Of a stretch of DNA of 60,690 nucleotides, positions 29,976 through 60,690 are shown one piece after another. Under the pieces are notes generated by a model. The model made no database searches. It had not been told where the DNA came from and was given only the letters and a program-made list of their open reading frames with translations. Each line of letters starts with the position of its first letter. Positions within the stretch are counted from its first letter, which is position 1. The DNA is from an uncultured Gammaproteobacteria bacterium (lineage in GTDB: Bacteria > Pseudomonadota > Gammaproteobacteria > SZUA-140), in NCBI GenBank assembly GCA_964425105.1, contig CAYRLE010000001.1, positions 1 through 60,690 on the forward strand. The letters run 5' to 3'. Made by a program: the position numbers and the translations under genes.

Positions 29976-30000
29976 GTAGTGTGGGCGCCGCTCACCAAGA
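29976..30000. repeat. REP-like 25-nt element (GTAG + imperfect palindrome), copy 1
   Basis: GTAGTGTGGGCGCCGCTCACCAAGA. 23 of 25 nt are identical to 60589-60613. Both copies are intergenic. Confidence 0.6.
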
Positions 30001-46114: not shown

Positions 46115-47997
46115 GGCTGCGCCACCTTCTTGTCCGCCGCCAGGTCGTAGATGCGTGCCAGGCCGAAGCGGGCCTGGACTTCATAGGCCCGCAGGCGTTC
46201 CTCGCGCTGGGCCAGGGTGCGCAGTACCAGAGTGCGCAGGTAGGCCTCGTGGTGTTCCTTGGCGGCGGTGACGCGCGCCTGCAGGTCTCCGAGGCGCGCC
46301 TGCAGCGTGGCGATACGCTGGTCGTAACCGGCGAAACCGCGCGGCGCCTGTTGCTTGGCCGCGGCCAGGCTGCGGCGTTGCTTGCCAGCTTCATCCAGGG
46401 CCGAATCCAGCGCCCTGAGGTGCTTGCGCAGCGTCCACAGCCGGGCCTTGTAGTCCTGGGCCAGGCGCCAGCGGTAGACACCTTGCAGCAGGCGCAGTTT
46501 TTCCCGCTGGGGGTTTAGGGCATCCTCTTCCCCGTGGCGCTGTAGCAGGGTGGCGGCCTTCTCCAGTCTGGCCTGGAGGCGCAGTTCCTTTGCCGTGGCC
46601 AGCGCCGTGGCATCTTCCCTGGCGGTGATGTCCCGCAGCTGGGCGGCATAAGCGTCGCGTTGGCGGCGCACCGCCGCCGGGTCCAGGCGCCGATAGCCGG
46701 CCTCGATGCGCGGTAGGCGCTGTTCATAGCCCAGGCGGCGCAGGGCCAGCATGTCCTGGAAGGCCGCGGTGTTGCGCTGCCAGCGTTCCAGGTCGCGCGC
46801 CAGGAAGCGCAGTTCGCGGTAATTGCGCAGCACGGCCTGAAATTCATTGCCCGCCAGCAGGCGCAGCAATTCGCTGTTTTGGGCCTCCGCCGGGGGATTG
46901 CGCAGCTGCCACAGCCAGCCGCGGCTCTTGTCCTCGTCCTTGCTCAGCAGCAGTTCGGCAATGCCCTGGTCACGAACCTCCTTGCCGAGGGCTCGGACGT
47001 GCTGCCGTTCCGCCACCAGGGCATCGACGGCCTGCTGGTAGCGCTGCGCTGCCTGGCCATAGACGCCGGCTTCCACGAGGGCATAGGGTATCGCGAGCAG
47101 GGCTTCCTGGACTGCAGGTTCCGTCACACTTCGCCCACTCAGTTCCTCCCAGGGCACCAGTGCCCGCGACAGTCTGCCAGCGGCGAATTCGGCCCAGCCC
47201 AGGCCCAGCAGGGCGGGAGCGGCGGACAGGCCCTGGAGACGGACCTGCTGCAGGCGCTGCGCGGCGTCTGCGGCCTGCCGGTCACGCAGATGGATATAGC
47301 CCAGGGCGAGATTGGCCTTGTCGCGCAGGGCCAGCAGTTCCTCGTCCTGTGTCTGCAGGGCGCCGACCTCGGCCAGTAGATCCAACCCTTCCGCGCGCTG
47401 TCCGTCGCGCACCAGGGCGACGCCCAGGTTGAAGCGGGCATAGGCAGCCCACAGGTGGGAGCGGGTGGGGGCGGCCAGCAGGCGCGCGGCACTTGTGTAG
47501 TCCCCCAGGTCCATCAACACCCGGCTGCGCAGCAGGCGGGCCTCGTCGCGCAGTTCCACGGGCAGCGCCTGCTCATGCACCTTGTCCAGGGCGGCGGCGG
47601 CCTTGTCGGCATAAGCGTTTCGCTGCCAGATCCTGGCCAGGTGGAACCATGCCTGATTGCGCAGCGCTGGGTCGTCATTTTGGTCCAGTAGCCGGGTGAA
47701 GACCCGTTCGGCCTGGTCATGGAGGCCATAGGAGAGCAGCAGGCCGCCTTCCAGCAATTCTGCCTCTACGCGGTGGTGAGGCAGCTGCCCGCGCTGCAGG
47801 GCAGCCTGGAGGCGAGTAATGGCGCTGAAATAGTCTTCCTGGTAAAAGTCGAACAGCACTTCTCCATAGGCCAGATCGCGCACCGCCTGGGGGTGGGGCG
47901 CGGCAGCGGCCTGCGGACCCAGCAGGGCCAGCATGAACAGCAGCAGGGAGAGATGCCGGTGGAGGCCCATGGCTCTGGGAGTAAGTTTCAGTCCCAT
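46111..47997 (-). CDS. Secreted TPR + coiled-coil protein (628 aa)
   Basis: Signal peptide (LSLLLFMLALLGPQAAA), an N-terminal TPR-like half and a C-terminal Arg/Leu/Ala-rich coiled coil. The start is ATG 47997 or ATG 47970. Confidence 0.7.
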   Translation of the reverse strand: MGLKLTPRAMGLHRHLSLLLFMLALLGPQAAAAPHPQAVRDLAYGEVLFDFYQEDYFSAITRLQAALQRGQLPHHRVEAELLEGGLLLSYGLHDQAERVFTRLLDQNDDPALRNQAWFHLARIWQRNAYADKAAAALDKVHEQALPVELRDEARLLRSRVLMDLGDYTSAARLLAAPTRSHLWAAYARFNLGVALVRDGQRAEGLDLLAEVGALQTQDEELLALRDKANLALGYIHLRDRQAADAAQRLQQVRLQGLSAAPALLGLGWAEFAAGRLSRALVPWEELSGRSVTEPAVQEALLAIPYALVEAGVYGQAAQRYQQAVDALVAERQHVRALGKEVRDQGIAELLLSKDEDKSRGWLWQLRNPPAEAQNSELLRLLAGNEFQAVLRNYRELRFLARDLERWQRNTAAFQDMLALRRLGYEQRLPRIEAGYRRLDPAAVRRQRDAYAAQLRDITAREDATALATAKELRLQARLEKAATLLQRHGEEDALNPQREKLRLLQGVYRWRLAQDYKARLWTLRKHLRALDSALDEAGKQRRSLAAAKQQAPRGFAGYDQRIATLQARLGDLQARVTAAKEHHEAYLRTLVLRTLAQREERLRAYEVQARFGLARIYDLAADKKVAQP

Positions 47998-48536
47998 TCC
48001 TTGACGATGAATTCGGGCTGCTGCCTGCTCTCCACGTCAACGATCTTCAGTTCCAGGTATTTGGGGCCCAGTTGTTTCTCGAAGGTGAGGGTCGCACCGC
48101 GGCGGTATTCCCGGCCCTCGGGGCCCAGCCCCGTGAAGAAGGCCACCAGTTCATGCTCACCAGCGCGCAGGTTGCCGAAGTAGATGCGCTGCACGCCGCC
48201 GCGGCGCAGGGCCTCCAGTTCACGACGGGTATAGAGATAATTGCTCACCACCTTGTCGTCGATTTTCACCTGCACGGCATCCAGCTTGAAGAATTCGCCG
48301 GTATCCAGGGACAGGAACACCGCCACCTGGGTGTTGGTGGGAAAGAGCAGTTCCTCCTCGAGGACGAACAACTCGCGGTTGATCTCCAGGATGTCTTTCT
48401 TGAGCGCCTGCACCTCGTCGTCCAGACTGTGGAAGTCCGCCGGCGCGGTGCTGTTTTCTGCTTGGGCCACGACGGAAAAGACACTGCCCAGAAGGAGCAG
48501 TGCCACAAGAGGGTAGAGCTTGATGCTGCGTTTCAT
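47988..48536 (-). CDS. Secreted protein (~182 aa): N-terminal short coiled coil + beta-rich domain, unknown function
   Basis: Signal peptide MKRSIKLYPLVALLLLGSVFSVVAQA, then DDEVQALKKDILEINRELFVLEEELLFP. First gene downstream of heptamer hairpin H1. Confidence 0.6.
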   Translation of the reverse strand: MKRSIKLYPLVALLLLGSVFSVVAQAENSTAPADFHSLDDEVQALKKDILEINRELFVLEEELLFPTNTQVAVFLSLDTGEFFKLDAVQVKIDDKVVSNYLYTRRELEALRRGGVQRIYFGNLRAGEHELVAFFTGLGPEGREYRRGATLTFEKQLGPKYLELKIVDVESRQQPEFIVKEWD

Positions 48537-48615
48537 GATGGGCCTCGCGGGCTGGTGGCGCATTTCGTGTTATAGAGTTTTTCGGCTGAATGATACTTTG
48601 GCTTGATTGAAAATC

Positions 48616-48692
48616 CGTGAGGGGTGAGGCGAAAAGTCCATTGGGGTCTATCAGTTTCCCGTAGGATTTCCCCTCACCCCTCACCCCTCACG
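48616..48692. repeat. Heptamer-built hairpin H1 (GTGAGGG x2 ... CCCTCAC x3)
   Basis: Left arm cGTGAGGGGTGAGGcgaaaagtcc; right arm ggatttcCCCTCACCCCTCACCCCTCACg. It ends 2 nt before the stop codon (48695-48697) of the DUF1501-like gene. Confidence 0.85.
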
Positions 48693-48694
48693 AA

Positions 48695-50293
48695 TCATAT
48701 CGTCCCACTGACAATGGGGTCGAAGGCAGTGAGGCTGTCCATGAGCGTGGCATTGCCCAGGCCGTGGCCGGGGAACAGGAGGGGGAAGTTGCCCTGTTCG
48801 CCGTGCAGGGCCAGGTAGTTGAGGATCACGGTCTCCACCAGCAGGTTGACGTTGTTGGCCGCCGGGCTGGAGGCGGTCTCCACCGAACCGTCGGAGCGAA
48901 AGTAGCCCAGTTGCTGGTGCTGCTCCGGCGCCAGGCTGTCGCCGCTGAACAACTGGGGACGGCCGCCGGGATGATAGACGAGGAAGAAGGCGGCGGCGGT
49001 GGAGGAGTTGTCGCCGGTCCACACGCCCTTGCCGCGGCCTTCCGAGGAATTGTCCACGGCTCCGTTGCTGGCCACGGAGCCGTCGCTGAACACGTAGAGC
49101 ATCAGCGGCACACCCACCCGCGCGGCGTATTCCAGGCAGGCGCCCATGCAGCGTCCGGCGCGCAGGTCGCGGATCTCGCCCACGGCTCGGTCGCCGGTAT
49201 GGTAGTCATAGCCGCCCATGGTGATGGTGCCGGCGCCGGCGAAGCCGTTGACGACCATTTTCATCACCGAGGCGGTCTTGCGGAACTCGCCATCGCTATC
49301 GAACTCCGCCTGGCTGAAGATGCCCGTAGGACCGACGATGTCGGGGTCCAGGGCGGGGTTGAGGGTGGAGGGGTCGCCGAAGCGGTCGGCGATGTCGGCG
49401 GCCTTGACGTAGCCGCAGCGCACCAGGTCCTTGATCACGGCATCCGCCGAGACCTTGGTGTCGACCTGCCCCAGCTTCATGTCGCTGATGCGTTCGATGG
49501 ATTCCATCACCGCCACAGCATCGGCCTGGTCCAGGACACCGATGAGTTGCCCGGTGTCCACCAGGCCGGTAACGTCCGAAGGGCGGTCCACCTTGGTGGG
49601 GCGCGCCGCCGCGTCCATCATGGTGGCCGGCGCCAGGGAGTTGCCGCCGGAGTCGGAGCTGCGTGAGCCGATGAGGCTCAGCAGGCTGCCGTCGGCGCCG
49701 GCGCGGTAGATGCCGTACATGGGGTTGTGGGGGTTGTTGCCGGTATCGTTGTCGGAGCGTGCCGGAATCACCGCGCCGTTGATATTGGCGCTGCGCCCGC
49801 CAGCCTTCTCCAGGATGCCACGCAGAAAGGCGCTGTCGGCGTGAAAGGACAGGCCCATATCGCTGTTGATGAAGTCGTTGAGGCCCGTCTGTGGATTGGT
49901 CAGGGGCGGGATCATGTCGCCCGGCAGGCCCTGTTTTCTGTAGCCGGCGCTGGTGAGGAAATCCAGCTGGCCGCCCTGCTTGCCCACCAGGACGTTGGAG
50001 CCGGCGATGTTGGCGCCGCCCGCCAGGTCGAAGCAGATGAAGGGGATCTTGCCCGCCCCCTGGGTGGCGATGCCGCAGCCGGTCTTCAGCGCCTCCAGAT
50101 CCGATGACAGGGCGGCATAGGCGGCGCGCGGGTTGGCAAACAGGCTGAGCACCGTGGGGGCGGTCACCAGGCCGAGGCCGGTGAGAAAGCCCTGGGCGAT
50201 GAACTCGCGGCGCGTCATGGGCCGCCGGTGATCGGGGTGGCGGAGGGGCTCGTCGGGTGACAGGAATTTGCGTCGTTTGGCCATGGTGGTCAT
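48695..50293 (-). CDS. Tat-signal periplasmic protein, DUF1501-like (sulfatase/phosphatase-fold family of unknown function)
   Basis: Twin-arginine motif (MTRREFIAQGFLTGLGLV), FICFDLAGGANIAG (compare the DUF1501 GG.D..N motif) and GGYDYHTGDR (compare GGWDTH). Confidence 0.7.
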   Translation of the reverse strand: MTTMAKRRKFLSPDEPLRHPDHRRPMTRREFIAQGFLTGLGLVTAPTVLSLFANPRAAYAALSSDLEALKTGCGIATQGAGKIPFICFDLAGGANIAGSNVLVGKQGGQLDFLTSAGYRKQGLPGDMIPPLTNPQTGLNDFINSDMGLSFHADSAFLRGILEKAGGRSANINGAVIPARSDNDTGNNPHNPMYGIYRAGADGSLLSLIGSRSSDSGGNSLAPATMMDAAARPTKVDRPSDVTGLVDTGQLIGVLDQADAVAVMESIERISDMKLGQVDTKVSADAVIKDLVRCGYVKAADIADRFGDPSTLNPALDPDIVGPTGIFSQAEFDSDGEFRKTASVMKMVVNGFAGAGTITMGGYDYHTGDRAVGEIRDLRAGRCMGACLEYAARVGVPLMLYVFSDGSVASNGAVDNSSEGRGKGVWTGDNSSTAAAFFLVYHPGGRPQLFSGDSLAPEQHQQLGYFRSDGSVETASSPAANNVNLLVETVILNYLALHGEQGNFPLLFPGHGLGNATLMDSLTAFDPIVSGTI

Positions 50294-50365
50294 ACCTCGC
50301 CCGTTGGTTCGTTATCGTTTGTCTTAGTATGTGTGGGTGCATGTGTTGCTGTATCCTCGTGGGAG

Positions 50366-50496
50366 GTAATGAGTGATGCGTGATGAGTAATGAGAGGAAG
50401 AACTGCTTTCCCGCCATGCCATCTGTCCTGTCCCTTCTCATCACCCATCACTCATCACCCATCACTCATTACCCATCACTCATTACTCACGTCACT
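50366..50496. repeat. Heptamer-built hairpin H2 (GT[A/G]ATGA x4 ... T[C/T]AC[C/T]CA x7)
   Basis: Left arm 50366-50393: gtaatga gtgatgc gtgatga gtaatga. Right arm 50441-50489: tcaccca tcactca tcaccca tcactca ttaccca tcactca ttactca. The right arm runs into the stop codon (50492-50494) of the LamG gene. Confidence 0.85.
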
Positions 50497-52984
50497 GCAG
50501 CAGCAACACCGCGCTGCCCAGCACCGCCGCGCAACTGGCCTTGACCACTTCTGTGGTGCGCGCCGTGGTGGCGCAGGTGGGTGTGGGGCCGGTGGCGCAG
50601 GCCGTGAGGCGGTCCATGAGATTGTTCAGTTCATTCTTCACGCTCAGCGCATCGGGCTGGGTGGCGACATTGTTGCCCAGACTCCGGCTCAGCAGGGGAT
50701 CGATAATCGAGTCGCGCTTGGCCACTGTGTCGAAGGCGGTGTCGGCCGCGGCCGTGAAATCGAAGCCGGAGAAATAGCTGGCCGCGGGCTGTTGGCCCTT
50801 GCCGTCCACCAGGGCACTGCAGTATTCGATGGCCAGTTGGGAGACCGCCATCTGGTGGGCGGAGAGGAAGCCTTCGATGTTCTCCACCGTGGGCAGCTGT
50901 TGCTTGACGGTGGTGAAGACGACCTGCACGTCGCCCTGGCTGGGGCTGACATCGGTGACCGCTGCCATGGTGGCGTGGATCTCCTCGAAAGTGCGCAGGC
51001 CGATGTCGGGCACGGGCGCGGCATCCGGCGGGGGAGGGGGCGTCAGGGGCGCCGGCTCGGTGATCACGTTGCTGTTGTCGCCCAGGGTCTCGAAGGTGAG
51101 GAAGAACTCGTCGGCCTCCGGTCCCTTCTCCAGGGCGATCACGGTGCCGAGGCGCGACAAGAGCTGGCCCTTGGCGCTGTCGTAGGCGCTGCCCCCCAGG
51201 GTGAGGTCCAGGTTGCGGTAGGCCTGGCCCACCACGGCCTCCTTGCCGTTGATGCCAATGCGCATGGCGCGCAGGGGGATGTTGGCGGGGCTGGCCTGGG
51301 GGTCGAGGCTGATGAAGGTGGGCTGGTTGAAGAGATAGCTGTAGTTGTCGAACTGGCTGACCTCGAAGAGGATGTAGCTCTGGGGCACGCCGATGAGGTC
51401 GCTGACGCCGAACAGCAGGAAGAACTTCTCGCCCACGCCGACTTTGAAATTCTGCAGGATCTGCTCAGGTGTCAGGGCGCGGTTGTGAATGGCCACCAGG
51501 CGCAGCTTGCCCTGCCACAGGCGGTCGCCGGAGACCTCGTTGCCCAGCACGAAGGCGAAACTGTCGTCCCAGTCGCTGAGGTTGCCGCCGGCGACATTGT
51601 CCAGGTCGCCGGTGAACTGGCCGTTGACATAGATGCGCCGTCCGTTGGCCGGGTCGTAGGTGACCACCACATGCTGTTGGGTGGCCTGCAGCACTTCGGC
51701 GGCATCGGCGGTGGACAGGGCCGGCTCGCCGTTGCCGTCGGTGGTGCTGGAACGGTGCAGAAAGTCGTAGTTGTAGAGGGTCTGGCCCAGAGTGAAGTTG
51801 CGCGCCTGGGTGCCGGCGGAATAGCTGATGATACGCGCCGGGCCTTCCTGGGTGACATTGGCGGGCACCACCCAGGCCTCGATGGAGTATTCGCCGGTGG
51901 CGGTGATGAGGTCGTGGAGTTTCTTGCTGGCCGTGGTGCTGCCCTGGGCCTTGCCATCGATGATCTCGATGCCCCAGCCGCCGACCCAGTTGACGTTGCC
52001 GCTTAAGCTCAGGTGCAGGCCGGGTTCCACGCCGCTGGTGTCGTAGGCGGTGGTGCCCTGGCCGGTCTTGAATTCGTAGAGGGCGATGACATTGTCTTCC
52101 ACGCGGCTGCCGCCGCTGGCAATGATGCCGTCGGTCAGGCGCAGCGCCTTGCTGATCACCAGTTGGGGGGCCACCTGGGTCAGAGGCACCGTGGCAGCGA
52201 AGGCCTGGATGGCGGCCTCCATGTCGTTGGCGTCGTTCTGGCAGTCGCTGCTCCAGCAGTTGTGGAATTCATTGCGCAGGCGTACCACGAGGCGCGAATT
52301 GGCGGGATTGTCCAGGTCCATCTTGGCCTTGGCGGCCTCGTAGGCGGCGTCCACGTCGCTGCCCGCGAAGAAGGGCGCCTGGGGGGTGGCCGAGGATTCG
52401 CTGTGGCAGCCAGCGCAGTTGGCCGTGAGCAGAGGATGGACGGTGGTGGCGAAGTCGCTTGAGGCGGCAGGGAAGCTCTTGCTGGCGCCGGGATCCTTGT
52501 CCACCGGCGCCTTGAGTTCGATCTGGCGCCCGCCGCCGGCGCCCACGCCGCTGGCCCAGGCCTCGATATAGGCGGTGATCACCGCGCCGCAGGCGCTGTC
52601 GGCGGCCAGCCAGCAGTTGTGGCCGCCCGCCACCTTGCTCACCAGGCGCGAGTCGGCGGGCGAGTCCAGGTTCACCAGGGGATTGACGGCGCCATAGGCG
52701 AGATTGATATCGTCGCTGCGCACGAAGGCCGGCGAGGCGGGACCGTCCTGGCCATGGCAGGCGCCGCAGCGGTTGCCGGCGCTGAGATTGTCCCAGATAT
52801 TGAGTTTGAAGTTCTGCACGTCGCTGGTGGCGGGTGCCGGGCCACTATAGCTCACGCCTTGGGTATTGCTGTCGCGGGAGGGCAGGGGCTCGGTGGTGGC
52901 GCCGCCGCCACAGCCCGCCAGGATCAGGGCTGCGGCCAGCAGCATCAGACGTGCGCTCAGGGCAAAACGGGATCGGTTCATCAT
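50492..52984 (-). CDS. Secreted lipoprotein with two tandem CxxCH modules + LamG/concanavalin-like domain + long C-terminal region
   Basis: Lipobox LILAGCGG; CGACH and CAGCH; LamG-like core (ALYEF..G..AYD.SG..LHL.L.G.V.W....G..I..G.........GEYSIEAWV.P......ARIISYS....RNFTLGQ...LWQGKLRLVAIHNRALT). The ATG at 52984 overlaps the upstream stop (TGATG). Confidence 0.8.
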   Translation of the reverse strand: MMNRSRFALSARLMLLAAALILAGCGGGATTEPLPSRDSNTQGVSYSGPAPATSDVQNFKLNIWDNLSAGNRCGACHGQDGPASPAFVRSDDINLAYGAVNPLVNLDSPADSRLVSKVAGGHNCWLAADSACGAVITAYIEAWASGVGAGGGRQIELKAPVDKDPGASKSFPAASSDFATTVHPLLTANCAGCHSESSATPQAPFFAGSDVDAAYEAAKAKMDLDNPANSRLVVRLRNEFHNCWSSDCQNDANDMEAAIQAFAATVPLTQVAPQLVISKALRLTDGIIASGGSRVEDNVIALYEFKTGQGTTAYDTSGVEPGLHLSLSGNVNWVGGWGIEIIDGKAQGSTTASKKLHDLITATGEYSIEAWVVPANVTQEGPARIISYSAGTQARNFTLGQTLYNYDFLHRSSTTDGNGEPALSTADAAEVLQATQQHVVVTYDPANGRRIYVNGQFTGDLDNVAGGNLSDWDDSFAFVLGNEVSGDRLWQGKLRLVAIHNRALTPEQILQNFKVGVGEKFFLLFGVSDLIGVPQSYILFEVSQFDNYSYLFNQPTFISLDPQASPANIPLRAMRIGINGKEAVVGQAYRNLDLTLGGSAYDSAKGQLLSRLGTVIALEKGPEADEFFLTFETLGDNSNVITEPAPLTPPPPPDAAPVPDIGLRTFEEIHATMAAVTDVSPSQGDVQVVFTTVKQQLPTVENIEGFLSAHQMAVSQLAIEYCSALVDGKGQQPAASYFSGFDFTAAADTAFDTVAKRDSIIDPLLSRSLGNNVATQPDALSVKNELNNLMDRLTACATGPTPTCATTARTTEVVKASCAAVLGSAVLLLQ

Positions 52985-54162
52985 CAATCACCCATGCAGT
53001 AGACGGCGGCCTCGGCGAAGACCTGTTTCAGATTGTAGTTGCTGGCCTTGAAGGATGCGGTGATGGCTGCGATCTTGCTGCGGTCCGCACTGTTGCCTGG
53101 CTCGCGGAAGCACACGGCCTTGAAGACCTTCTTTACCTGGCAGCTGGCGAAGGCCGCGCTGTTCTCCAACTCCATGCCCATGCTCTTGGCGCCCTGGCCG
53201 CTGCCGGTCAGGGCACTGTCCCAGCCCAGCAGGGCATTGGGGCCGCTGCGCCAATAGTTGTCCCAGCGGTCGTCGGGGGTGATGTAGCCGTATTTGAAGT
53301 TGTCGGCGTTGATCAGGTATTTGGGCTGCACTGCGCCGGGGGTGTAGACGAGGCGCCCGGCGTCCTCGTCGTAGTCGTAGTAGGCATAGGCCTGGGTCAG
53401 CGGGTCCATGCCGCTGTGGCAGCCCACGCAGCTGTTGAGAAAGATGCGGCTGTCACCGCCGGGGCTGCGCGAGACGTCCTGGCGTATGCGGTCCGAGGGC
53501 CGGGTGTTGTCCTTGATCTGTTCCAGGTCGGTGCACAAATGGTTGAGCAGGGTGAAGCGGAACATGGCGCGGTTGGTGCCATCGATGAAAAAGGCCTTGG
53601 CGGCGGCGCGGGTGGTCATGACGCCCGCAGTGGCCGCGGCGGGGAGTCCGGTGAGCGCCGACTGGCTGCTGGGCACCAGCATGGCCTTGAGGTCGATGCC
53701 CTGGTTTTCCAGGGCCGCGTAGTGGTCGTTGTTGTCCACGGCATAGGGGGGCAGGCCCAGGGCCGGGTCGCCCACGTAGAGCAGATCAGCGGAGAGCAGG
53801 GTGTTGAAGGGCACGTTGTCGCGGACCATGCCGATCACTGTGGCGGTATAGTCGTTGAGAGGCGCGAAGACGGTCTGTTCCTCATTGGTCCAGGGGGTGA
53901 CGAAATTCTTCAGCGTGACGTTATAGAAGGCGCTGTTCTCCATGGCCGTGAAGGCGGCGTCCTCGGGACGGCCGGCGGCGATGTCCGCGGCCATGGCATC
54001 CAGTACCGCCGCGCTAGGCGGCACGCCGGCAAGGCGGTCGTGGAGACGCTTGGCCTGTTCGCGGTTGCCGGACCAGGCCGGGGAGGCAGCCAGTATCAGC
54101 AGCAAGGCGCTCAGGAAATAAAGCGTCAGGGCCGGCTGTTTGCTTGGTGTCGATGAATTCAT
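52984..54162 (-). CDS. Secreted CxxCH protein, DUF1588/PSD-family-like (Planctomycete-type cytochrome-associated domain)
   Basis: Signal peptide (LTLYFLSALLLILAASPAWS); FIDGTNRAMFRF.LLNHL.C; FLNSCVGCHSGMDPL. ATG at 54162 is chosen; the ORF-track extension to 54399 is not protein-like. Confidence 0.65.
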   Translation of the reverse strand: MNSSTPSKQPALTLYFLSALLLILAASPAWSGNREQAKRLHDRLAGVPPSAAVLDAMAADIAAGRPEDAAFTAMENSAFYNVTLKNFVTPWTNEEQTVFAPLNDYTATVIGMVRDNVPFNTLLSADLLYVGDPALGLPPYAVDNNDHYAALENQGIDLKAMLVPSSQSALTGLPAAATAGVMTTRAAAKAFFIDGTNRAMFRFTLLNHLCTDLEQIKDNTRPSDRIRQDVSRSPGGDSRIFLNSCVGCHSGMDPLTQAYAYYDYDEDAGRLVYTPGAVQPKYLINADNFKYGYITPDDRWDNYWRSGPNALLGWDSALTGSGQGAKSMGMELENSAAFASCQVKKVFKAVCFREPGNSADRSKIAAITASFKASNYNLKQVFAEAAVYCMGD

Positions 54163-54531
54163 GTGTCGTAGTGCTCTATGTTGGGTCCACGTGCGCCATG
54201 GGTTTCCCTGTGTTCTTGTAACGGCCGCTGCGCTTTTCACGCAAGACCGAGGAGTTCCTGCATTATGCAGGAAGCCGGGGAAGTTTTTGTGATTGGCTGC
54301 GCAGTTTGCCCCGTCGCCGCTGGCGGATAATGCAAACAGTGATGCCGTTCTCTCCAGCCAAGCAATCCCCCGGCCGCTGTCATAGAATGGCAGCGGCATG
54401 GCGGCTGGCGCTTATGGAGAAAATCACGCCTCCTCAACGTTAAACAAGCCGAAGTTAGAGATAATCTTGTTTTATTTTGTCTCTATTGCTCATTTGAATT
54501 CTAAGACGGAGATGCCAGCGGATTGGTTGCA
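54163..54531. promoter_or_regulatory. Divergent control region between the minus-strand operon and the beta-propeller gene
   Basis: About 370 nt non-coding between divergently oriented genes. Includes an AT-rich block (54440-54510: gttagagataatcttgttttattttgtctctattgctcatttgaattc). No operator identified. Confidence 0.4.
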
Positions 54532-57120
54532 ATGACGAAGAAATCCGACAGGATACCTGCGGCAATGGCCGTGATTTTGTCGTTTACTGTTTTACTGCTG
54601 GCTGCCTGTGGCGGGGGCGAGGGTGTGGACCCGGTGGTGGAGAATTTCGGCATCGCCTACGTGGTGCGCCCCTTGCCCGAGGATGGCAACAGCGACAGCC
54701 GCGAGTTGTTGGACTTCAAGGCCGGTGGCGATCTCTATTACCGCGACCTGGCCTCGCCGGGAGCCCGTGCGCGCAATATCACCGCAGACGTGACCGGCGG
54801 CCAGGGCGACGTGCGCGACGTGAGCGTCTCCTATGACGGCAGCAGGCTGTTGTTCGCCCTGCGTCTGCCTTCGATCGAGGGCGCCGATCCTGAGGACCAG
54901 CCCACGTGGAACATCTGGGAATACGATATCAGCGAAGACCGCCTGCGGCGCATCATCGCCTCCGATATCACCGCCGAGGCGGGCCAGGACCGCTCCCCCC
55001 AATACCTGCCCGACGGGCGCATCGTCTTCAGTTCCACGCGCCAGCGCCAGGCCAAGGCCACCCTGCTGGACGAAGGCAAGCCCCAGTTCGCGGCCCTGGA
55101 CGAGCGGCGCCGGGAGCCGGCCTTCGTGCTCCATGTGATGGAGGCCGATGGCAGCGATATCCGCCAATTGTCCTTCAATCAGAGCCATGACCTGGACCCG
55201 GTGGTGCTGGCCAGTGGTGAGATTCTCTTCAGCCGTTGGGACAACATGGGAGGGCGCAACCAAGCGAGCCTCTACAAGATCCGGCCCGACGGCACCGGCC
55301 TGGAAGTGGTCTACGGCGCCCACAGCCATGCCGGCGACAGCGGACAGTTGCAGTTCCTGCGTCCCCGGGAAATGCCCGATGGCCGCCTGCTGGCCCTGCT
55401 CAAACCTTTTCGCAGCCCCTATGGCGGCGCCGACCTGATCACCATCGATATTGCCAATTTTGTCGATAATGACCAGCCTGCCGCCGACGGGTCAGCGGGC
55501 GACAGCGCCCAACAGCCGGCCACTATCCTGAAGGTAAGCACCGGCAGCGGCCCATCGGCCGGCGGCCGCTTCAGTGCCGCCTTTCCCCTCTGGGACGGTA
55601 CCGTCCGCGCCTTGGTGAGTTGGACGCCCTGCCGCCTGCAGGCGGTGGATGGCCGCATCCTGCCCTGCACACCGGCACGTCTGGCCGAGCCCGATGTCCA
55701 GGAGGCCCCCCCGCTCTATGGCCTCTATCTCTACAATATGGATGACGACACCCAGGTGCCGCTGCTGGTGCCCCGCGAGGGCGTGATTTACACCGATGTG
55801 GTGGCTGCTCAGCAGCGCCGCCTGCCCGCCATCCTGGCCGATCGCAGCCTGGATGCCGATCTGGCGGAGGAGGGTGCGGGGGTGCTCGACATCCGCAGCG
55901 TCTATGATTTCGACGGTGTCTTCAATGGCCTGGGCGCGGCGGCTGCCGATATCGCCGAACTGGCGGACCCGGCGCGCACCCCGGCCGATGGGCGTCCCGC
56001 GCGCTTTCTGCGGGTGGTGAAGGCGGTGGCCATTCCCGACCGCAATCTGGTGCGGCTGCGGGGCACGGCCTTCGGGCGCAGCAGCCGCCAGCTGATGCGG
56101 GAGATCGTCGCCTACGCACCCATCGAGCCCGACGGCTCGGTGAAGATCAAGGTGCCCGCCAACGTGCCGCTGGCCATCAGCGTCCTGGACAAGGATGGCC
56201 GGCGCATCAGCAACCGCCACCAGAACTGGATCCAGCTGCGCCCTGGCGAGACCGTCACCTGCAACGGCTGCCACGACCACAACAGCGGTATTCCCCACGG
56301 CACCCCGCGGGGACCCGCGGCCCTCAACAGCGGCGCCGCCACCACGGGCCTGCCCTTTCCCAACACCGACCCCGCCCTGTTCGCCGACATGGGTGAGACC
56401 ATGGCCGAGACCCGCACCCGGCTGGATGCCGCGGCGCTGACGCCCAGCGTCGACCTGGTCTATGAGGATGTCTGGACGGATGAGACGGCAGCGGGGCGGG
56501 GCAAAGACACGCCTTTCGCCTACCGCTACGGCGACCTGGCCACCCCGGCGCCGGCGCCGTCCGCCTGCCAGACGGCCTGGAGCCCGGCCTGCCGCATCGT
56601 GATCCATTACGAGACCCACATCCACCCACTGTGGGGCCGGGACCGCGGCGCCGATACCTGCACCCTGTGCCATGGCAGCCGCGACGCCATGGACAATCTG
56701 CAGGTGCCGGCAGCGCAACTAGACCTCAGTGACGGCGCCTCCAGCGACCAGCCCGCTCATTTCACCTCTTATCGGGAACTACTGTTCAACGACAATGAGC
56801 AGGAGATCGTCATGGGCGCCCTGCAGGACCGCCTGGTGCAGGCCACCGACGGCAACGGCAATCCCTTGTTCGAGACCGACGAGAACGGCGATCTCATCCT
56901 CGATGCCGCAGACAATCCCATTCCAGTGATGGTGACCGTCACCGTGCGCCCGGTGATGTCCACGGCTGGCGCTTTAGCCAGCAGCCGTTTCTTCGAGCTC
57001 TTCGCTCCCGGCGCCAGCCATGCCGGGCGCCTGGAGCCGGCGGAATTGCGCCTCATCGCCGAGTGGCTGGACATCGGAGCCCAGTACTACAATGACCCCT
57101 TTGCCGTGCCGCCGCCTTGA
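54532..57120 (+). CDS. Lipoprotein: TolB/PD40-like beta-propeller + C-terminal region with two CxxCH motifs (hydrazine-synthase-alpha 'middle domain'-like architecture)
   Basis: Lipobox LLLAACGG. PD40-like repeats (VSYDGSRLLFA; PQYLPDGRIVFSS; ILFSRWDN; YKIRPDGTGLEVV). CNGCH and CTLCH lie in the last ~280 aa. Confidence 0.75.
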   Translation: MTKKSDRIPAAMAVILSFTVLLLAACGGGEGVDPVVENFGIAYVVRPLPEDGNSDSRELLDFKAGGDLYYRDLASPGARARNITADVTGGQGDVRDVSVSYDGSRLLFALRLPSIEGADPEDQPTWNIWEYDISEDRLRRIIASDITAEAGQDRSPQYLPDGRIVFSSTRQRQAKATLLDEGKPQFAALDERRREPAFVLHVMEADGSDIRQLSFNQSHDLDPVVLASGEILFSRWDNMGGRNQASLYKIRPDGTGLEVVYGAHSHAGDSGQLQFLRPREMPDGRLLALLKPFRSPYGGADLITIDIANFVDNDQPAADGSAGDSAQQPATILKVSTGSGPSAGGRFSAAFPLWDGTVRALVSWTPCRLQAVDGRILPCTPARLAEPDVQEAPPLYGLYLYNMDDDTQVPLLVPREGVIYTDVVAAQQRRLPAILADRSLDADLAEEGAGVLDIRSVYDFDGVFNGLGAAAADIAELADPARTPADGRPARFLRVVKAVAIPDRNLVRLRGTAFGRSSRQLMREIVAYAPIEPDGSVKIKVPANVPLAISVLDKDGRRISNRHQNWIQLRPGETVTCNGCHDHNSGIPHGTPRGPAALNSGAATTGLPFPNTDPALFADMGETMAETRTRLDAAALTPSVDLVYEDVWTDETAAGRGKDTPFAYRYGDLATPAPAPSACQTAWSPACRIVIHYETHIHPLWGRDRGADTCTLCHGSRDAMDNLQVPAAQLDLSDGASSDQPAHFTSYRELLFNDNEQEIVMGALQDRLVQATDGNGNPLFETDENGDLILDAADNPIPVMVTVTVRPVMSTAGALASSRFFELFAPGASHAGRLEPAELRLIAEWLDIGAQYYNDPFAVPPP

Positions 57121-57217
57121 GATGGGAAGATCATCAATGCATTGGGATGCCGGAGGTTTCCTTAAAGAAATGGCCCCACCCGCCGTATATGCCTGAAAGC
57201 GGAGTGGCCCCGAGGAC

Positions 57218-57955
57218 ATGCAAATCCCTGCCTTGTTATTGATGATGGCATTGTGCCTGGCGACGAACGCCTTGGCTGCCAAGCCAGCAGTGGAAGCGGA
57301 AGTGGCGGACCCCTATCTGGAACTGCACACCGGGCCGGGCGCGGCCTATCCGGTTTTCTATGTGGTGGAGCGAGGCAGCAAGGTGCGCATCCTCAAGCGC
57401 CGCACTGGCTGGTTCAAGGTGCGCAGCGCCAAGGGCAAGGAGGGCTGGGCCGCGCGCAGCGACATGGAGCAGACACTGCTGGCCGCCGGCGTCCCCTTGC
57501 GCATCGCGGAGCCGGGGCGTGGCGAATTCAGCGCCCGGCGCTGGGAGATGGGAGTCCTGGGCGGCGATTTCGAAGGAGCCGACTCCATCACCCTGTATGG
57601 CGGCTATGCCTTCAATGCCAATTTGTCGGCGGAGTTATCAGTGGCACAGATACTGGGAGATTTTTCGGACAGCATCCTGGCGAATGTCAATGTGCTGGTC
57701 CAGCCCTTCCCCCGCTGGCGGGCCTCGCCCTTTTTCACCCTGGGCACGGGGGTCATCGACACCAATGCCCGCAAGACCGTGGTGGAGGCCCAGGACAGCA
57801 CGGACCAGGTCAGTCACGTGGGGGCAGGCCTGCGGGCCTATCTGGGGCGGCGCTTCATCTTCCGCGCCGAATACAGGAATTACGTGATCTTCACCAGTAG
57901 AGACGACAACAAGGAAATCGACGAATGGCGCGCTGGCTTCGCATTCTTTTTCTGA
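57218..57955 (+). CDS. Outer-membrane protein: N-terminal bacterial SH3 domain + C-terminal beta-barrel
   Basis: Signal peptide; SH3b-like (LELHTGPGAAYPVFYVVERGSKVRILKRRTGWFKVRSAKGKEGWA). Alternating-strand C-terminal half ending ..WRAGFAFFF (aromatic OMP terminus). Confidence 0.7.
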   Translation: MQIPALLLMMALCLATNALAAKPAVEAEVADPYLELHTGPGAAYPVFYVVERGSKVRILKRRTGWFKVRSAKGKEGWAARSDMEQTLLAAGVPLRIAEPGRGEFSARRWEMGVLGGDFEGADSITLYGGYAFNANLSAELSVAQILGDFSDSILANVNVLVQPFPRWRASPFFTLGTGVIDTNARKTVVEAQDSTDQVSHVGAGLRAYLGRRFIFRAEYRNYVIFTSRDDNKEIDEWRAGFAFFF

Positions 57956-58581
57956 AACGCTTTGCCGCTGAATTTGGGGCGGGGCTGGCGTTATTGCTGT
58001 TGGTGGCGCCGGCACTGGCCGGGCAGGAGCAAGTCATCGAACCGCAGTTGGAGCGCCGCGACATCAACGTGCCGAAGATCGACAGCGAGAATTTCGAGAT
58101 CGGCCTCTTCGGCGGCGTCATGAGCGTGGAGGACTTCGGCACCAGCCCGGTCTATGGCGCGCGCGCGGCCTATCACGTCACCACGGGCTTGTTCGTGGAG
58201 GCCGCCTACGGGCGCACCGACACCGATGAGACCAGCTACGAGAAACTCAGCGGGGGCGCCAAACTGCTCACCGACAGCGAGCGCCAGTTGAGTTATTACA
58301 ACTTCTCTTTGGGTTACAATCTGCTGCCGGGAGAGACCTTCCTCACCCGCAGGCTCGCCTTCACTTCCGATTTCTATGTCATCGCAGGTATCGGCAGCAC
58401 CGACTTCGCCGGCGATCAGCGCTTTACCGTCAACTACGGCGCCGGCTACCGGCTGCTGGCCACGGACTGGCTGGCGGTCCATGTGGATGTCCGCGACCAC
58501 TTGTTCGATTCGGACCTGCTGGGTGAGACCAAGACTACGCACAATATTGAGATCAGTGGCGGACTGACGGTCTTTTTTTGA
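57925..58581 (+). CDS. Outer-membrane beta-barrel domain protein
   Basis: Signal peptide (LALLLLVAPALA), beta-strand periodicity and the terminal ..EISGGLTVFF. Overlaps the previous gene by 31 nt. Confidence 0.7.
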   Translation: MARWLRILFLKRFAAEFGAGLALLLLVAPALAGQEQVIEPQLERRDINVPKIDSENFEIGLFGGVMSVEDFGTSPVYGARAAYHVTTGLFVEAAYGRTDTDETSYEKLSGGAKLLTDSERQLSYYNFSLGYNLLPGETFLTRRLAFTSDFYVIAGIGSTDFAGDQRFTVNYGAGYRLLATDWLAVHVDVRDHLFDSDLLGETKTTHNIEISGGLTVFF

Positions 58582-58665
58582 GTGATGAATAATGGGTGAT
58601 GAGTAATGAGTGATGAATGAAGATCTTCCTATTATCCATCACTCATCACCCATTACCCATTACTG
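58581..58665. repeat. Heptamer-built hairpin H3 ([A/G]GT[G/A]ATG x5-6 ... AT[C/T]AC[C/T]C x5)
   Basis: Left arm: agtgatg aataatg ggtgatg agtaatg agtgatg aatgaag. Loop: atcttcct. Right arm: attatcc atcactc atcaccc attaccc attactg. Begins at the stop codon of the OM barrel gene. Confidence 0.85.
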
Positions 58666-58680
58666 CGCGAGTATCAACAG

Positions 58681-59202
58681 ATGAGGTGTCACATGAATTT
58701 ACGAATGAACAAACTGGCAGGCTATATCCTGCTCCTTGTGGCCATGCTGCTGCTGGCAGGCGCTGCCGTAGCCAAGGAGGTCTCGGGCCCGGCCCCTGAC
58801 TTCACCCTCAAGAGCCGCGGCGGCGAGAACCTCAAGCTCAGCGAATTCCGCGGTGAGGTGGTGATGATCAACTTCTGGGCCTCCTGGTGCGGTCCCTGCC
58901 GCAAGGAGATGCCCCTCCTGGATCAGCTCTACCAGCGCTATCATCCCCTGGGCTTCACCATTCTCGGTGTCAACGTGGAAGAGGATTCGGAAGAGGCATT
59001 GCGCCTGTTGAAGGAAATCCCCGTGACCTTCCCCATTCTCTTCGATCGCGACAACAAGGTTTCGGAGACCTATGAACTGGTGGCCATGCCCACCACGGTG
59101 ATGGTGGACCGCGACGGCAACATGCGTTTCGTCCACCTCGGCTATGTCCCCGGCTACGAACGGGAATACGAAGCCCAGATCAAGGCCCTGATCCGGGAGT
59201 GA
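58681..59202 (+). CDS. TlpA/ResA-family periplasmic thiol:disulfide oxidoreductase
   Basis: Signal anchor, thioredoxin fold and the active site WASWCGPCRKEMP. ATG 58693 is an alternative start. Confidence 0.85.
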   Translation: MRCHMNLRMNKLAGYILLLVAMLLLAGAAVAKEVSGPAPDFTLKSRGGENLKLSEFRGEVVMINFWASWCGPCRKEMPLLDQLYQRYHPLGFTILGVNVEEDSEEALRLLKEIPVTFPILFDRDNKVSETYELVAMPTTVMVDRDGNMRFVHLGYVPGYEREYEAQIKALIRE

Positions 59203-59420
59203 GCATGCGCCCCGTATTCCTGCTTGTGATGTTGCTGCTACTGGGAGGCTGCGGAATCAAGCCCTGGGTGAAACCCTACGAGCGTCACCGGCTGGCGGAC
59301 CCCATCATGAGTTTCAGCCGCGATCCGGTGTCCACGGCCTATAGCAACCACGTCTACGAGGCCCGCGAAGGGGCGCGCGGCGCAGAAGGCAGCCAGGGTG
59401 GGGGTTGTGGCTGCAATTAG
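59199..59420 (+). CDS. DUF4266 lipoprotein
   Basis: Lipobox LLLLGGCG and the family-typical C-terminus GGGCGCN. ATGA-type overlap with tlpA. Confidence 0.75.
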   Translation: MSMRPVFLLVMLLLLGGCGIKPWVKPYERHRLADPIMSFSRDPVSTAYSNHVYEAREGARGAEGSQGGGCGCN

Positions 59421-60552
59421 GGGCAGACACCTGCTGGCGGGCCTGCTGGCGGCCCAGGGGTTGCTGGTGCCCCTGCTAGCGGCCGTGCTCCCCGAGGACC
59501 GCGCCGACGCCCTCTATCATTCTTATGATGGCGGCGGGGTGGAGGTCAACGGTCCGTCCATTTTGCTGCGCAAGCAAGTGGGCAAGTACAGTTCCTTTTC
59601 CGCCAACTACTATGTCGATTCCATCACCAGCGCCTCCATCGACGTGGTGACCGCCGCCAGTCCTTACGAGGAGCAGCGGGTGGAGAAGAGCATCGGCGGC
59701 GATTTCCTGTTCGACAAGACCATCATGAGCCTGGGTTTCACCAGCAGCGAGGAAAACGACTTCGATGCCAAGTCCGCCGCCTTCAGCATCAGCCAGGACC
59801 TGTTCGGCGACCTCACCACCGTCACCCTGGGCTATGTGCGCGGCTGGGACAAGATCGGCAAGCGCGGCGACCCGGCCTTCTCGGAAGACGCCGACAGCCA
59901 GCGCTACCGCATCGGCATCAGCCAGATCTTCACCAAGAACCTGATCGTGGCCCTGAACTTCGAGACGGTCACCGACGAGGGCTTCCTCAACAACCCGTAC
60001 CGCTCGGTGCGCTTCCGAGACCCTGGCAGCGCCCTGGGTTACAGCTTCGAGCCCGAGGTCTATCCCCGCACCCGCACCAGCAACGCCATCGCCCTGCGCA
60101 GCCGCTACTATCTGCCCTACCGCGCATCGCTGCTGGGGGAATACCGCTACTACAACGACAGCTGGGGCATCGGCGCCCACAACATCGGCCTGGGTTACAC
60201 CCACGCCTGGCGCGAGCACTGGCTGTTCGACCTCAAGTACCGCTACTACACCCAGGGCCACGCCGACTTCTACAGCGACCTCTTTCCCTACAGCCAAGCC
60301 CAGAACTTCCTGGCCCGCGACAAGGAGTTGAGCCGCTTCAGCAGCCACACGCTGGGCTTCGCCCTGAGCTATGAAGTCAGCCCCAAGGACTGGAGTTTCA
60401 TCGATCGCGGCAGCGTGAATCTTTCGTATGACCGCATCTTTTTCGACTACGACGACTTCCGCGACCTCACCAGTGGCGGCAGCGCCGGGCAGGAGTCACT
60501 CTACAGTTTCAATGCCGACGTGCTGCAGCTGTATATTTCCCTTTGGTATTAG
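59398..60552 (+). CDS. DUF3570 protein (predicted outer-membrane beta-barrel)
   Basis: N-terminal ..DRADALYHSYDGGGVEVNGPS.., Y/F-rich alternating strands and the terminal ..LQLYISLWY. The DUF4266-DUF3570 pairing is typical. Confidence 0.75.
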   Translation: MGVVAAIRGRHLLAGLLAAQGLLVPLLAAVLPEDRADALYHSYDGGGVEVNGPSILLRKQVGKYSSFSANYYVDSITSASIDVVTAASPYEEQRVEKSIGGDFLFDKTIMSLGFTSSEENDFDAKSAAFSISQDLFGDLTTVTLGYVRGWDKIGKRGDPAFSEDADSQRYRIGISQIFTKNLIVALNFETVTDEGFLNNPYRSVRFRDPGSALGYSFEPEVYPRTRTSNAIALRSRYYLPYRASLLGEYRYYNDSWGIGAHNIGLGYTHAWREHWLFDLKYRYYTQGHADFYSDLFPYSQAQNFLARDKELSRFSSHTLGFALSYEVSPKDWSFIDRGSVNLSYDRIFFDYDDFRDLTSGGSAGQESLYSFNADVLQLYISLWY

Positions 60553-60588
60553 GCAGCAAGCATTGTATGACGGGGATCAAATACCTCC

Positions 60589-60613
60589 GTAGAGTGGGCG
60601 CCGCCCACCAAGA
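60589..60613. repeat. REP-like 25-nt element (GTAG + palindrome), copy 2
   Basis: GTAGAGTGGGCGCCGCCCACCAAGA. GTGGGCG/CGCCCAC is a perfect 7-bp inverted repeat. 23 of 25 nt are identical to 29976-30000. Confidence 0.6.
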
Positions 60614-60623
60614 GCTTGTTTAT

Positions 60624-60690
60624 CGTGAGGAGTAAGGTATGAGGGGTGAGGCACGGAATCAGCTCACGATCACCCCTCACCCCTCACCCC
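60624..60690. repeat. Heptamer-built hairpin H4 (NNT[G/A]AGG x4 ... TCACCCC x3, cut by window edge)
   Basis: Left arm: cgtgagg agtaagg tatgagg ggtgagg. Right arm: ctcacga tcacccc tcacccc tcacccc. Same arm order as H1-H3. Confidence 0.8.

Follow-up and report, generated by a model that had tools for sequence, protein, structure and literature searches.

Inverted arrays of heptanucleotide repeats have been noted for decades, among them the STRR arrays of heterocystous cyanobacteria and the GGGAATC repeats of Xanthomonas, without an explanation. The latter are among the closest described systems; Rehm et al. (2015) found ~70 convergent GGGAATC pairs per Xanthomonas genome and stated that their function 'remains to be elucidated' (PMC4692102). 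Here we analysed a 60,690-nt stretch of DNA from an uncultured gammaproteobacterium (GTDB lineage SZUA-140; GenBank assembly GCA_964425105.1, contig CAYRLE010000001.1, positions 1–60,690), referred to as the window, and four hairpins in it, H1–H4, whose arms are built of tandem 7-nt units. Our best explanation, held with middling confidence, is that H1–H4 belong, as gene-less members, to a class of palindromic insertions that is widespread and whose full form carries a PF05635 gene between its arms. PF05635 is the four-helix-bundle '23S rRNA intervening-sequence protein' family, also known as S23p, and is Avd-like.

Like H1–H4, the pairs of Xanthomonas campestris and X. axonopodis consist of tandem 7-nt arrays that face each other on opposite strands, with the G-rich array first; about 90% are intergenic, they are located close behind the upstream open reading frame (ORF) and rarely between divergent genes, positions that match those of H1–H4, and their unit number varies between close relatives (PMC4692102). 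Different from Xanthomonas, the units in the window are GGGGTGA and GTGATGA/GTAATGA. The STRR arrays and the TAACTGA arrays of marine Beggiatoaceae (PMC4679880) are also intergenic tandem heptamers, with stops in all frames of the 'forward' orientation, a patchy phylogenetic distribution and unknown function. However, they are mostly single direct arrays and not hairpins; the TAACTGA sets face start codons, with a single inverted one among 170.

The 23S rRNA intervening sequences (IVS) of Coxiella burnetii and Leptospira (PMC4990558) resemble the class in another way. They are selfish insertions whose terminal inverted repeats form a long stem, and the protein that they encode belongs to the same PF05635 family that we found between the arms of gene-bearing relatives of H1–H4. 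The IVS sit in helix 25 or 45 of 23S rRNA, whereas H1–H4 are located in mRNA operon junctions, contain no ORF and have heptamer arms. MITEs, which are miniature transposable elements with inverted repeats, are likewise short, non-coding and multi-copy, with inverted ends, and are the apparent gene-less derivatives of a gene-bearing element; different from MITEs, H1–H4 share no internal sequence, and no transposase is known for the full-length form. No target-site duplication or direct repeat flanks H1–H4.

The REP, BIME and REPIN families (REP, repetitive extragenic palindrome) of Enterobacteria and Pseudomonas are also multi-copy extragenic palindromes, often located behind stops in operons, and REP stem-loops in mRNA affect decay and translation termination. 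REPs have 20–40 nt of conserved sequence including GTAG and are mobilised by RAYT transposases, whereas H1–H4 have no conserved core; no RAYT (IS200/IS605-like) gene was found among the window genes scanned. H1–H4 share only their repeat units, of two types, and an earlier sequence-only reading of the window was right that they are not a CRISPR, not coding and not classical REP/BIME. It had allowed that they might belong to an already catalogued family with a known function; the architecture is indeed catalogued, but its function is unexplained. Assignment to an Rfam family was rejected, as only sub-threshold matches to plant miRNA precursors were obtained (32 bits versus a gathering score of 96), and searching the literature for the unit sequences yielded nothing but incidental primer matches.

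Architecture and polarity of the heptamer hairpins

Re-reading of the sequence located all four elements where they had first been placed, each composed of a purine-rich run of 7-mers, a unique spacer and a complementary pyrimidine-rich run. H1 and H4 are of the GGGGTGA/TCACCCC unit type, whereas H2 and H3 combine GTGATGA or GTAATGA with TCATCAC or TCATTAC; though the two types coexist in the window, both arms of any hairpin share one type. The arms contain 1.9–8.3 tandem units each, with a period of 7 nt, and differ in unit number and composition. The loops are 10–40 nt in length and mutually unrelated.

In H1, the purine-rich arm (48617–48629; GTGAGGG GTGAGG, 1.9 units) is the trailing C-rich arm on the sense (minus) strand. 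It is followed by a 40-nt loop of unique sequence with a small inner stem (48630–48669) and by the pyrimidine-rich arm (48670–48691; (CCCCTCA)x3+C, 3.1 units), which reads (GTGAGGG)x3 on the sense strand and contains stops in all three frames. H2 is larger; on the plus strand its purine-rich arm has ~4.7 units of GTAATGA/GTGATGC/GTGATGA (50365–50397) and is separated by a unique 40-nt loop (50398–50437) from ~8 pyrimidine-rich YCATYAC units (TCATCAC/CCATCAC/TCATTAC; 50438–50495), which form the leading purine arm on the sense (minus) strand. A secondary period of 14 nt is present in the long arm of H2. H3, on the plus strand, has a leading purine arm of six units (58579–58621; TGAGTGA TGAATAA TGGGTGA TGAGTAA TGAGTGA TGAATGA), a loop of ~10 nt (58622–58631) and a trailing pyrimidine arm of 4.7 units (58632–58664; TTATCCA TCACTCA TCACCCA TTACCCA TTACT). 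The leading purine arm of H4, also on the plus strand, contains ~4 degenerate units (60625–60651; GTGAGGA GTAAGGT ATGAGGG GTGAGG), its loop is 18 nt (60652–60669), and its trailing (TCACCCC)n arm (60670–60690) is truncated where the window stops. The window forms part of a longer contig, and H4 was completed from a 100%-identical JGI contig, L521 (11978–12012), in which the full arm is (TCACCCC)x5 and extends to window-equivalent position 60704. On this contig H4 is located between convergent genes and not at the end of a sequence.

The arms had been described as 2–4 units on one side and 3–7 on the other. They are unequal, but 'short then long' is not a general order, since H3 has 6 versus 4.7 units. 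The slipped pairing registers that had been predicted are present (I1, I2 and I5 for H2; I3, I4 and I16 for H3), and H1–H4 are structured repeats with a tendency to slip in register. Compared to dinucleotide shuffles, H1–H4 have RNA fold z-scores of −3.0 to −7.5 on both strands, and the complete H4 folds at −45.1 and −54.6 kcal/mol (z −7.4 and −6.5).

The pattern TCAYYMM x2, with one mismatch, had 38 matches in the window versus 2.6 expected, and only five of them, all single, were located outside H1–H4. With a unit-agnostic period-7 detector, the four C-arms were the only period-7 arrays in the 60.7 kb; Tandem Repeats Finder (TRF) also lists the arms of H1–H4. As had been noted by eye, no further copy is present in 1–48,600 by the pattern, TRF or period-7 scans, despite ~20 intergenic gaps of at least 60 nt, nor was any found in the 18.5 kb beyond the window end, which gives four copies in the ~79 kb of this genome read directly. 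A compositional island was considered and rejected, as the GC content of the last 12 kb resembles that of the rest of the window.

The constant arm order on the plus strand had been presented as holding whatever the direction of the flanking genes. This is true, but it is automatic, because a purine-first hairpin reads purine-first on both strands; the informative regularity is that the opposite, C-first order is essentially never seen. Nor are H1–H4 a private family of four, as the same architecture occurs across phyla and in phage contigs with fixed polarity and position. For the survey, 415 loci (~3.5 Mb; many phyla and phage contigs) were fetched by heptamer patterns, pairs were defined as inverted period-7 arrays at most 120 nt apart, and genes were called by a crude ORF caller. 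Among 126 inverted pairs, 118 were G-first, 5 were C-first and 3 were unskewed (p = 4e-29). G-first pairs outnumbered C-first pairs 56:1 in the first set and, among control loci that had been seeded independently, 43:1; the rule also applies to unit families with no relation to the search seeds (27:2; 43:1). The orientation bias of partnerless arrays was only 41:24.

The pairs of the first set were found between co-directional genes in 32 cases, convergent genes in 8 and divergent genes in 4; the second sample gave 30, 6 and 0, respectively. In the co-directional pairs, the leading arm begins a median of 3.5 nt past the upstream stop (within 15 nt in 28 of the 32), and the trailing arm ends a median of 19.5 nt before the next start. 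Sense and antisense strands had no consistent difference in fold stability (11:9 in the survey; mixed in H1–H4), and strand selection at the RNA level, by G·U versus A·C mismatches, was therefore rejected. Two other candidate rules were rejected: the longer arm is not preferentially beside the stop codon (13 versus 18; the arms are equal on average), and arms of one hairpin have not co-evolved in an element-specific manner, as swapped arms of the same type pair as well as native ones.

A three-unit TYACYCM scan returned more than 100 stretches in viral contigs, and the matches listed, a lower bound, also came from Cyanobacteria, Planctomycetota, Acidobacteriota, Beta- and Gammaproteobacteria, Bacteroidota and others. 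Mirror-image and permuted control units are about as frequent (91, 89 and 43 stretches versus 106), so the unit family of the window has no special status.

G-quadruplex or i-motif elements have been proposed for the G-rich heptamers of Xanthomonas and Nostoc. Rehm et al. focused on G-quadruplexes and showed their formation for GGGAATC oligonucleotides (PMC4692102), and the minus strand of H4 contains five GGGG tracts and H1 three. However, only the minus strand of H4 reaches four G-tracts, and the GTGATGA/GTAATGA units of H2 and H3 contain none, which means that half of the window's elements cannot form the structure. Many survey families are A/T-rich, many unrelated unit sequences share the architecture, including those of families unable to form G-quadruplexes, and the complementary arm would compete by duplex formation. 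G-quadruplex capability belongs to the Xanthomonas sub-family and not to the architecture, and we consider it extremely improbable that it explains H1–H4.

Three survey loci deserve description. L079, a 6.5-kb phage-like contig, has two long hairpins (1137–1265 and 1727–1890) whose arms mix 3–4 unit types. The two arms of one of them differ in unit composition (sense −51.5 versus antisense −72.0 kcal/mol), thus arms evolve partly independently. In phage-like L400 (6350–6512), a 140-nt trailing arm of CTAACCC/CTAACCG (complement GGGTTAG, telomere-like) faces an (AGAGGTT)n arm across a loop of only 3 nt. L028 (4360–4420) carries a partnerless (GTAAGGA/GTGAGGA)n array, with perfect Shine-Dalgarno words (TAAGGAG) in tandem, that ends 5 nt before an ATG; it resembles the Beggiatoaceae TAACTGA arrays pointing at start codons. 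Shine-Dalgarno or anti-Shine-Dalgarno mimicry by the arms was dropped because composition explains most of the pairing gain: the units beat composition-matched shuffles on the 16S 3′ tail by only 0.3–0.7 kcal/mol, and 88 and 89 of 2000 resamples reached the observed mean (~0.044).

PF05635 genes between heptamer arms

Some members of the class enclose a gene. In locus L092, an (AGTAATG/AGTTATG)n arm is followed by a PF05635 gene (E 5e-25) and then by (CTCATTA)x8; the units are of the GTAATGA type. PF05635-like ORFs were also found between GGGTGAT/GAGTGAT arms, the unit of H2 and H3 (L205), between GGGGTGA/CCCCTCA arms, the unit of H1 and H4 (L173), and between GGAGTGA arms (L148). The ORFs of these last three loci were detected with a local PF05635 profile in loci fetched by the heptamer pattern only. 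All arms of the four loci are G-first.

The search was also performed from the protein side. All three PF05635 homologs examined are located between co-directional housekeeping genes with heptamer arms abutting; one lies between gyrB and a cytidylyltransferase gene. The contexts L496, L511 and, from Xanthomonas, L525 are all of the co-directional kind. Xanthomonas homologs (XCC0516-like) were reached through PDB entry 2gsc, and the X. campestris gene (L525, 400–900; GCA_035012225.1) lies between accB and accC. Its upstream arm is GGGAATC GGGAGTG GAGAATC GGGAATC and its downstream arm CCATTCC CCATTCT CGACTCC CTATTCC. The Xanthomonas paper linked the arrays to no gene, whereas here an accB-PF05635-accC arrangement carries GGGAATC-type arms, and the published repeat and the S23p/IVS-protein gene form one architecture. 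In the literature searched, no paper linking the two was found.

The gene-bearing copies share unit types, G-first polarity and the wedge position between stop and start with H1–H4. The loops of H1–H4 (10–40 nt) carry no ORF, and since no PF05635 ORF lies between their arms, they can only be gene-less relatives. PF05635 itself, annotated as 'four helix bundle', is a large and unexplained family of small proteins with thousands of matches.

The arms also bear on gene calling. In L092 (5815–6249), a start at the first in-frame ATG, which falls within the purine arm, would yield 144 aa, the length also found in database cluster P0001, while a start at 5869 gives a probable product of 126 aa. The annotated 109-aa product of L525 probably starts too late, the solved XCC0516 protein having 128 residues. 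Heptamer arms may cause systematic start-codon errors.

The association with PF05635 also fits an explanation without a functional hairpin, in which the arms would be binding-site arrays, regulatory or architectural. A dedicated nucleic-acid-binding protein, as had first been suggested, would recognise 7-nt units on either DNA or RNA; the PF05635 pentamer is a concrete candidate, and another factor is conceivable. The units are periodic with conserved cores, the PF05635 family is physically associated with such arms elsewhere, and a partner for heptamer repeats has been postulated in Nostoc and Beggiatoaceae. On the other hand, there is no gene for such a protein near H1–H4, and many unrelated units share the architecture, which is hard for one fold to recognise unless the protein co-varies with the arms. 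We regard this explanation as improbable.

Host junctions and gain in the lineage

H1 and H2 flank one gene within a minus-strand operon. The LamG-domain gene upstream of H2 (50492–52987, minus strand) ends with its native TGA stop at 50492–50494, and the leading arm of H2 on the sense strand begins 1 nt past this conserved stop. The gene bracketed by H2 and H1 (48695–50293, minus strand) encodes a 532-aa protein with a Tat signal; its TGA stop (48695–48697) is followed after 3 nt by the leading arm of H1, and a 191-aa gene (47988–48563, minus strand) lies 53 nt downstream of H1. H3 is located between plus-strand genes. The stop codon of the outer-membrane protein (OMP) beta-barrel gene (57925–58581) is itself the first TGA of H3, where the leading arm begins, and the trailing arm ends 28 nt before the probable start (ATG 58693, GAGG 5 nt upstream) of a redoxin/TlpA-like gene (58693–59202, plus strand), whose product from this ATG is on record as called. 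The leading arm of H4 lies 72 nt past the TAG stop of a DUF3570 gene (59398–60552, plus strand), and the convergent FGE-sulfatase gene ends 43 nt beyond its trailing arm.

As observed in seven of the eight arm-strands of H1–H4, leading arms contain stops in all three frames, and none of the eight trailing arm-strands contains a stop codon. A ribosome that reads in from either side terminates immediately, without lengthening any host ORF. The elements are tolerated for two reasons: the leading arm closes all three frames, and the room needed by the next ribosome-binding site is kept clear.

The hairpins had been suggested to act as terminators. Terminators or attenuators, intrinsic or Rho-related, with the C-rich arm as a rut site masked by the G-rich arm, would be in line with the strong stems, with trailing arms that are C-rich, G-free and full of YC dimers, and with the position of H4 between convergent genes; a G-first order would hide the rut tract once it is made and could explain the polarity. 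However, no U-tract follows any hairpin (the sequences after the trailing arms are gaatcat, tgcagca, tgcgcga and aataagc), none of the 15 terminator-like sites that a terminator scan found in the region coincides with H1–H4, and H1–H3 are located inside conserved co-directional operons. Between convergent genes, where a terminator would be of use, C-first hairpins are likewise absent. H1–H4 are not intrinsic terminators, and a terminator or attenuator role of any kind is very improbable. A run of 7–8 T is present at 58572–58579, just upstream of the leading arm of H3 and ending in the stop TGA; on the minus strand the hairpin is followed by an A-run, so H3 is not a terminator in either direction.

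To compare the H1 and H2 junctions with related operons, we collected 80 loci of the 532-aa gene (67–78% protein identity; 577 kb), and no period-7 array was detected in any of them. The junction between the LamG-domain gene and the 532-aa gene is 9–33 nt in the orthologous loci versus 198 nt in the window, and that between the 532-aa gene and the next same-strand gene is −4 to 75 nt versus 131 nt. The last codons and the stop of the LamG-domain gene are conserved (ctgctgcaaTGA versus ctgctgcagTGA), therefore H2 was added behind an intact gene end. We regard H1 and H2 as lineage-specific gains, because the 80 orthologous operons are without arrays and their junctions are much shorter. The 532-aa protein has no Pfam match, is 67–78% identical across at least 563 metagenome stretches, and its gene always follows the ~830-aa LamG-domain gene. 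The neighbourhood (43316–54399) is a conserved, uncharacterised envelope operon.

Copy number was assessed in the source metagenome run (X1), in which at least 87 contigs match the 141-nt H2 element at 90% identity or more. The depth over the long arm of H2 is ~2690 (summed, and including other organisms), versus a genome baseline of ~34–38; Logan contigs break at H2 and H4. Several of these contigs have the depth of the genome itself and enclose other loops between the same arms, and for this reason the data point to many more copies in this organism. Relatives at ~87–90% identity in two other metagenomes have H1–H3 at the same sites, and in one 87%-identical relative the H3 interval is 14 nt (two units) shorter, which, as interval lengths and not letters were compared, suggests that unit number varies between relatives in 7-nt steps.

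One X1 contig (depth 37.3) joins the end of a TCACCCC-type arm directly to the start of a GTAATGAG-type arm (48692 to 50366), with only 21 letters on its shorter side. It probably represents another locus, at which hairpins of the two unit types abut, rather than a loss of the 532-aa gene. In a hydrothermal-vent metagenome and one further run (X2 and X3, over 58580–58667), GTGATGA/TCATCAC arrays reach a very high abundance (summed depth up to ~150 and ~2400), so carriers of this unit type are common in those communities. In addition, H4 is the centre of a larger palindrome whose outer ends are inverted GTAG-type REP-like 16-mers (GTAGRGTGGGCRCCGC), located at 60589–60604 (plus strand) and at 12034–12049 of L521 (minus strand; window-equivalent 60726–60741), with a third copy at 29976–29991. 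Outside the heptamer arms, the H4 stem extends for another ~30 nt (−67.7 kcal/mol and z −6.0 for a 150-nt fold). The arrangement resembles a REPIN-like doublet, separate from H4, that encloses the heptamer hairpin.

The position behind stops would also be expected of a host-selected, REP-like element, independent of any cassette, whose stem shields the upstream cistron against 3′ exonucleases and/or delays the last ribosome at termination and thereby sets the expression ratio within the operon. H1–H3 start 0–3 nt past the stop, the class-wide median is similarly short, and REPs within ~15 nt of a stop affect translation termination. PMC6815119 cites Liang, Rudd and Deutscher (2015) for regulation of translation termination by REPs; RNase R and PNPase degrade REP sequences, which are structured elements of mRNA (PMC12320835), and the Xanthomonas repeats are transcribed (PMC4692102). 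However, the hairpins are absent from all 80 orthologous operons and therefore are not needed for operon function. Neither element-specific compensatory covariation nor a sense-strand advantage was observed, H4 is far from its stop, and Rehm et al. found no regulatory role (PMC4692102). We consider host selection of this kind quite unlikely.

The hairpins might alternatively be mutational by-products, that is, heptamer microsatellites born in situ by slippage and inverted by template switching, with no partner protein and no function, which persist where they are least harmful (behind stops, not in promoters). Heptamers are the most over-represented long class of simple sequence repeats in prokaryotes (summarised in PMC4679880 and PMC4692102), permuted and mirror unit families are about as common as that of the window, the arms differ in unit number and composition, down to the 14-nt secondary period of H2, and fold stability has no strand bias. 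The position rules could be explained by tolerance in short operon spacers. However, independent arrays would not yield a 118:5 polarity when partnerless arrays reach only 41:24, the hairpin-free orthologous junctions of 9–33 nt contain no seed for an array, the arms of each hairpin in the window are of one unit type although two coexist, and the same arms bracket one gene family, PF05635, in several phyla. We consider this origin possible but rather unlikely.

Possible activity and origin of the elements

According to our preferred reading, insertions with or without a PF05635 gene, the elements would be gained at operon junctions directly behind stops, in many copies, with arm lengths that change in 7-nt steps. 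They may be mobilised by PF05635 cassettes of this genome or be what deletions left of such cassettes. They would be co-transcribed in the operon mRNA, where the arms could pair into a stem of ~13–35 bp. The IVS of C. burnetii, which carries the S23p ORF, has a 28-bp terminal inverted-repeat stem that is cut by RNase III, and excision of IVS by RNase III also occurs in Salmonella, Leptospira and Alphaproteobacteria (PMC4990558). By this precedent, the stems of H1–H4 are probably RNase III substrates as well: the insert would be cut in the mRNA and the message split, and the stem stub left at the 3′ end of the upstream cistron may protect that end. A role as mRNA-processing or stability element, one of the first suggestions made for the hairpins, is kept as the most plausible activity, by analogy with the IVS; a related possibility is that the hairpins influence decay and the terminating ribosome as REPs do. 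Candidate reasons for the G-first order are the stop codons of the leading arm, avoidance of an exposed C-rich Rho-loading tract, and addition of repeats to 3′ ends at a break followed by rejoining.

Several observations weigh against this reading. All four copies are located within 12 kb, a clustering that nothing in this reading predicts, and ~79 kb of this genome, the window together with the 18.5 kb beyond it, contained no PF05635-like ORF. Only ~4–5 of the ~130 surveyed elements carry a PF05635 gene, and most other ORFs within wide G-first arms have no Pfam match; the small ORFs enclosed in L031, L088, L354, L374, L428, L400, L341 and L138 matched neither Pfam nor the local PF05635 profile. 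As the loops of H1–H4 are unrelated and without a gene remnant, descent from a cassette is conjectural, and the arms might instead have arisen in situ. None of this sequence is present in the metatranscriptome runs of the study. Finally, the two strands fold equally well, and same-type arms pair no worse when swapped than in their native hairpins, so there is no sign of selection for a particular RNA.

A more speculative proposal, to which we give a low probability, is that the hairpins are the non-autonomous form of a transposase-less mobile element whose sole gene is PF05635 (Avd-like, pentameric four-helix bundle). The PF05635 protein would recognise or template 7-nt units and, with host enzymes, create or copy G-first arms, possibly by adding repeats to the 3′ ends at a break, which are then rejoined. 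Such a route would account for the G-first order on both strands, the generic arms and the unique filler loop. If this is true, the STRR-like arrays of cyanobacteria, the GGGAATC repeats of Xanthomonas, the 23S rRNA intervening sequences and the hairpins of the window would be one system.

For practical work, short-read assemblies are interrupted at such arrays, and gene callers extend ORF starts into the arms, as in L092. The analysis raises testable questions: whether RNase III cuts the elements in mRNAs, whether PF05635 proteins bind their own arms, and by what route new copies form. The hairpins belong to a known but unexplained kind of element, to which they add new units and a new lineage. 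The window contributes a GC-rich mat bacterium that has two unit types, and a well-resolved case that supports the fixed polarity, the position behind the stop and the link to a PF05635 cassette, including that of Xanthomonas, and it identifies the elements as recent gains in otherwise tight operons.

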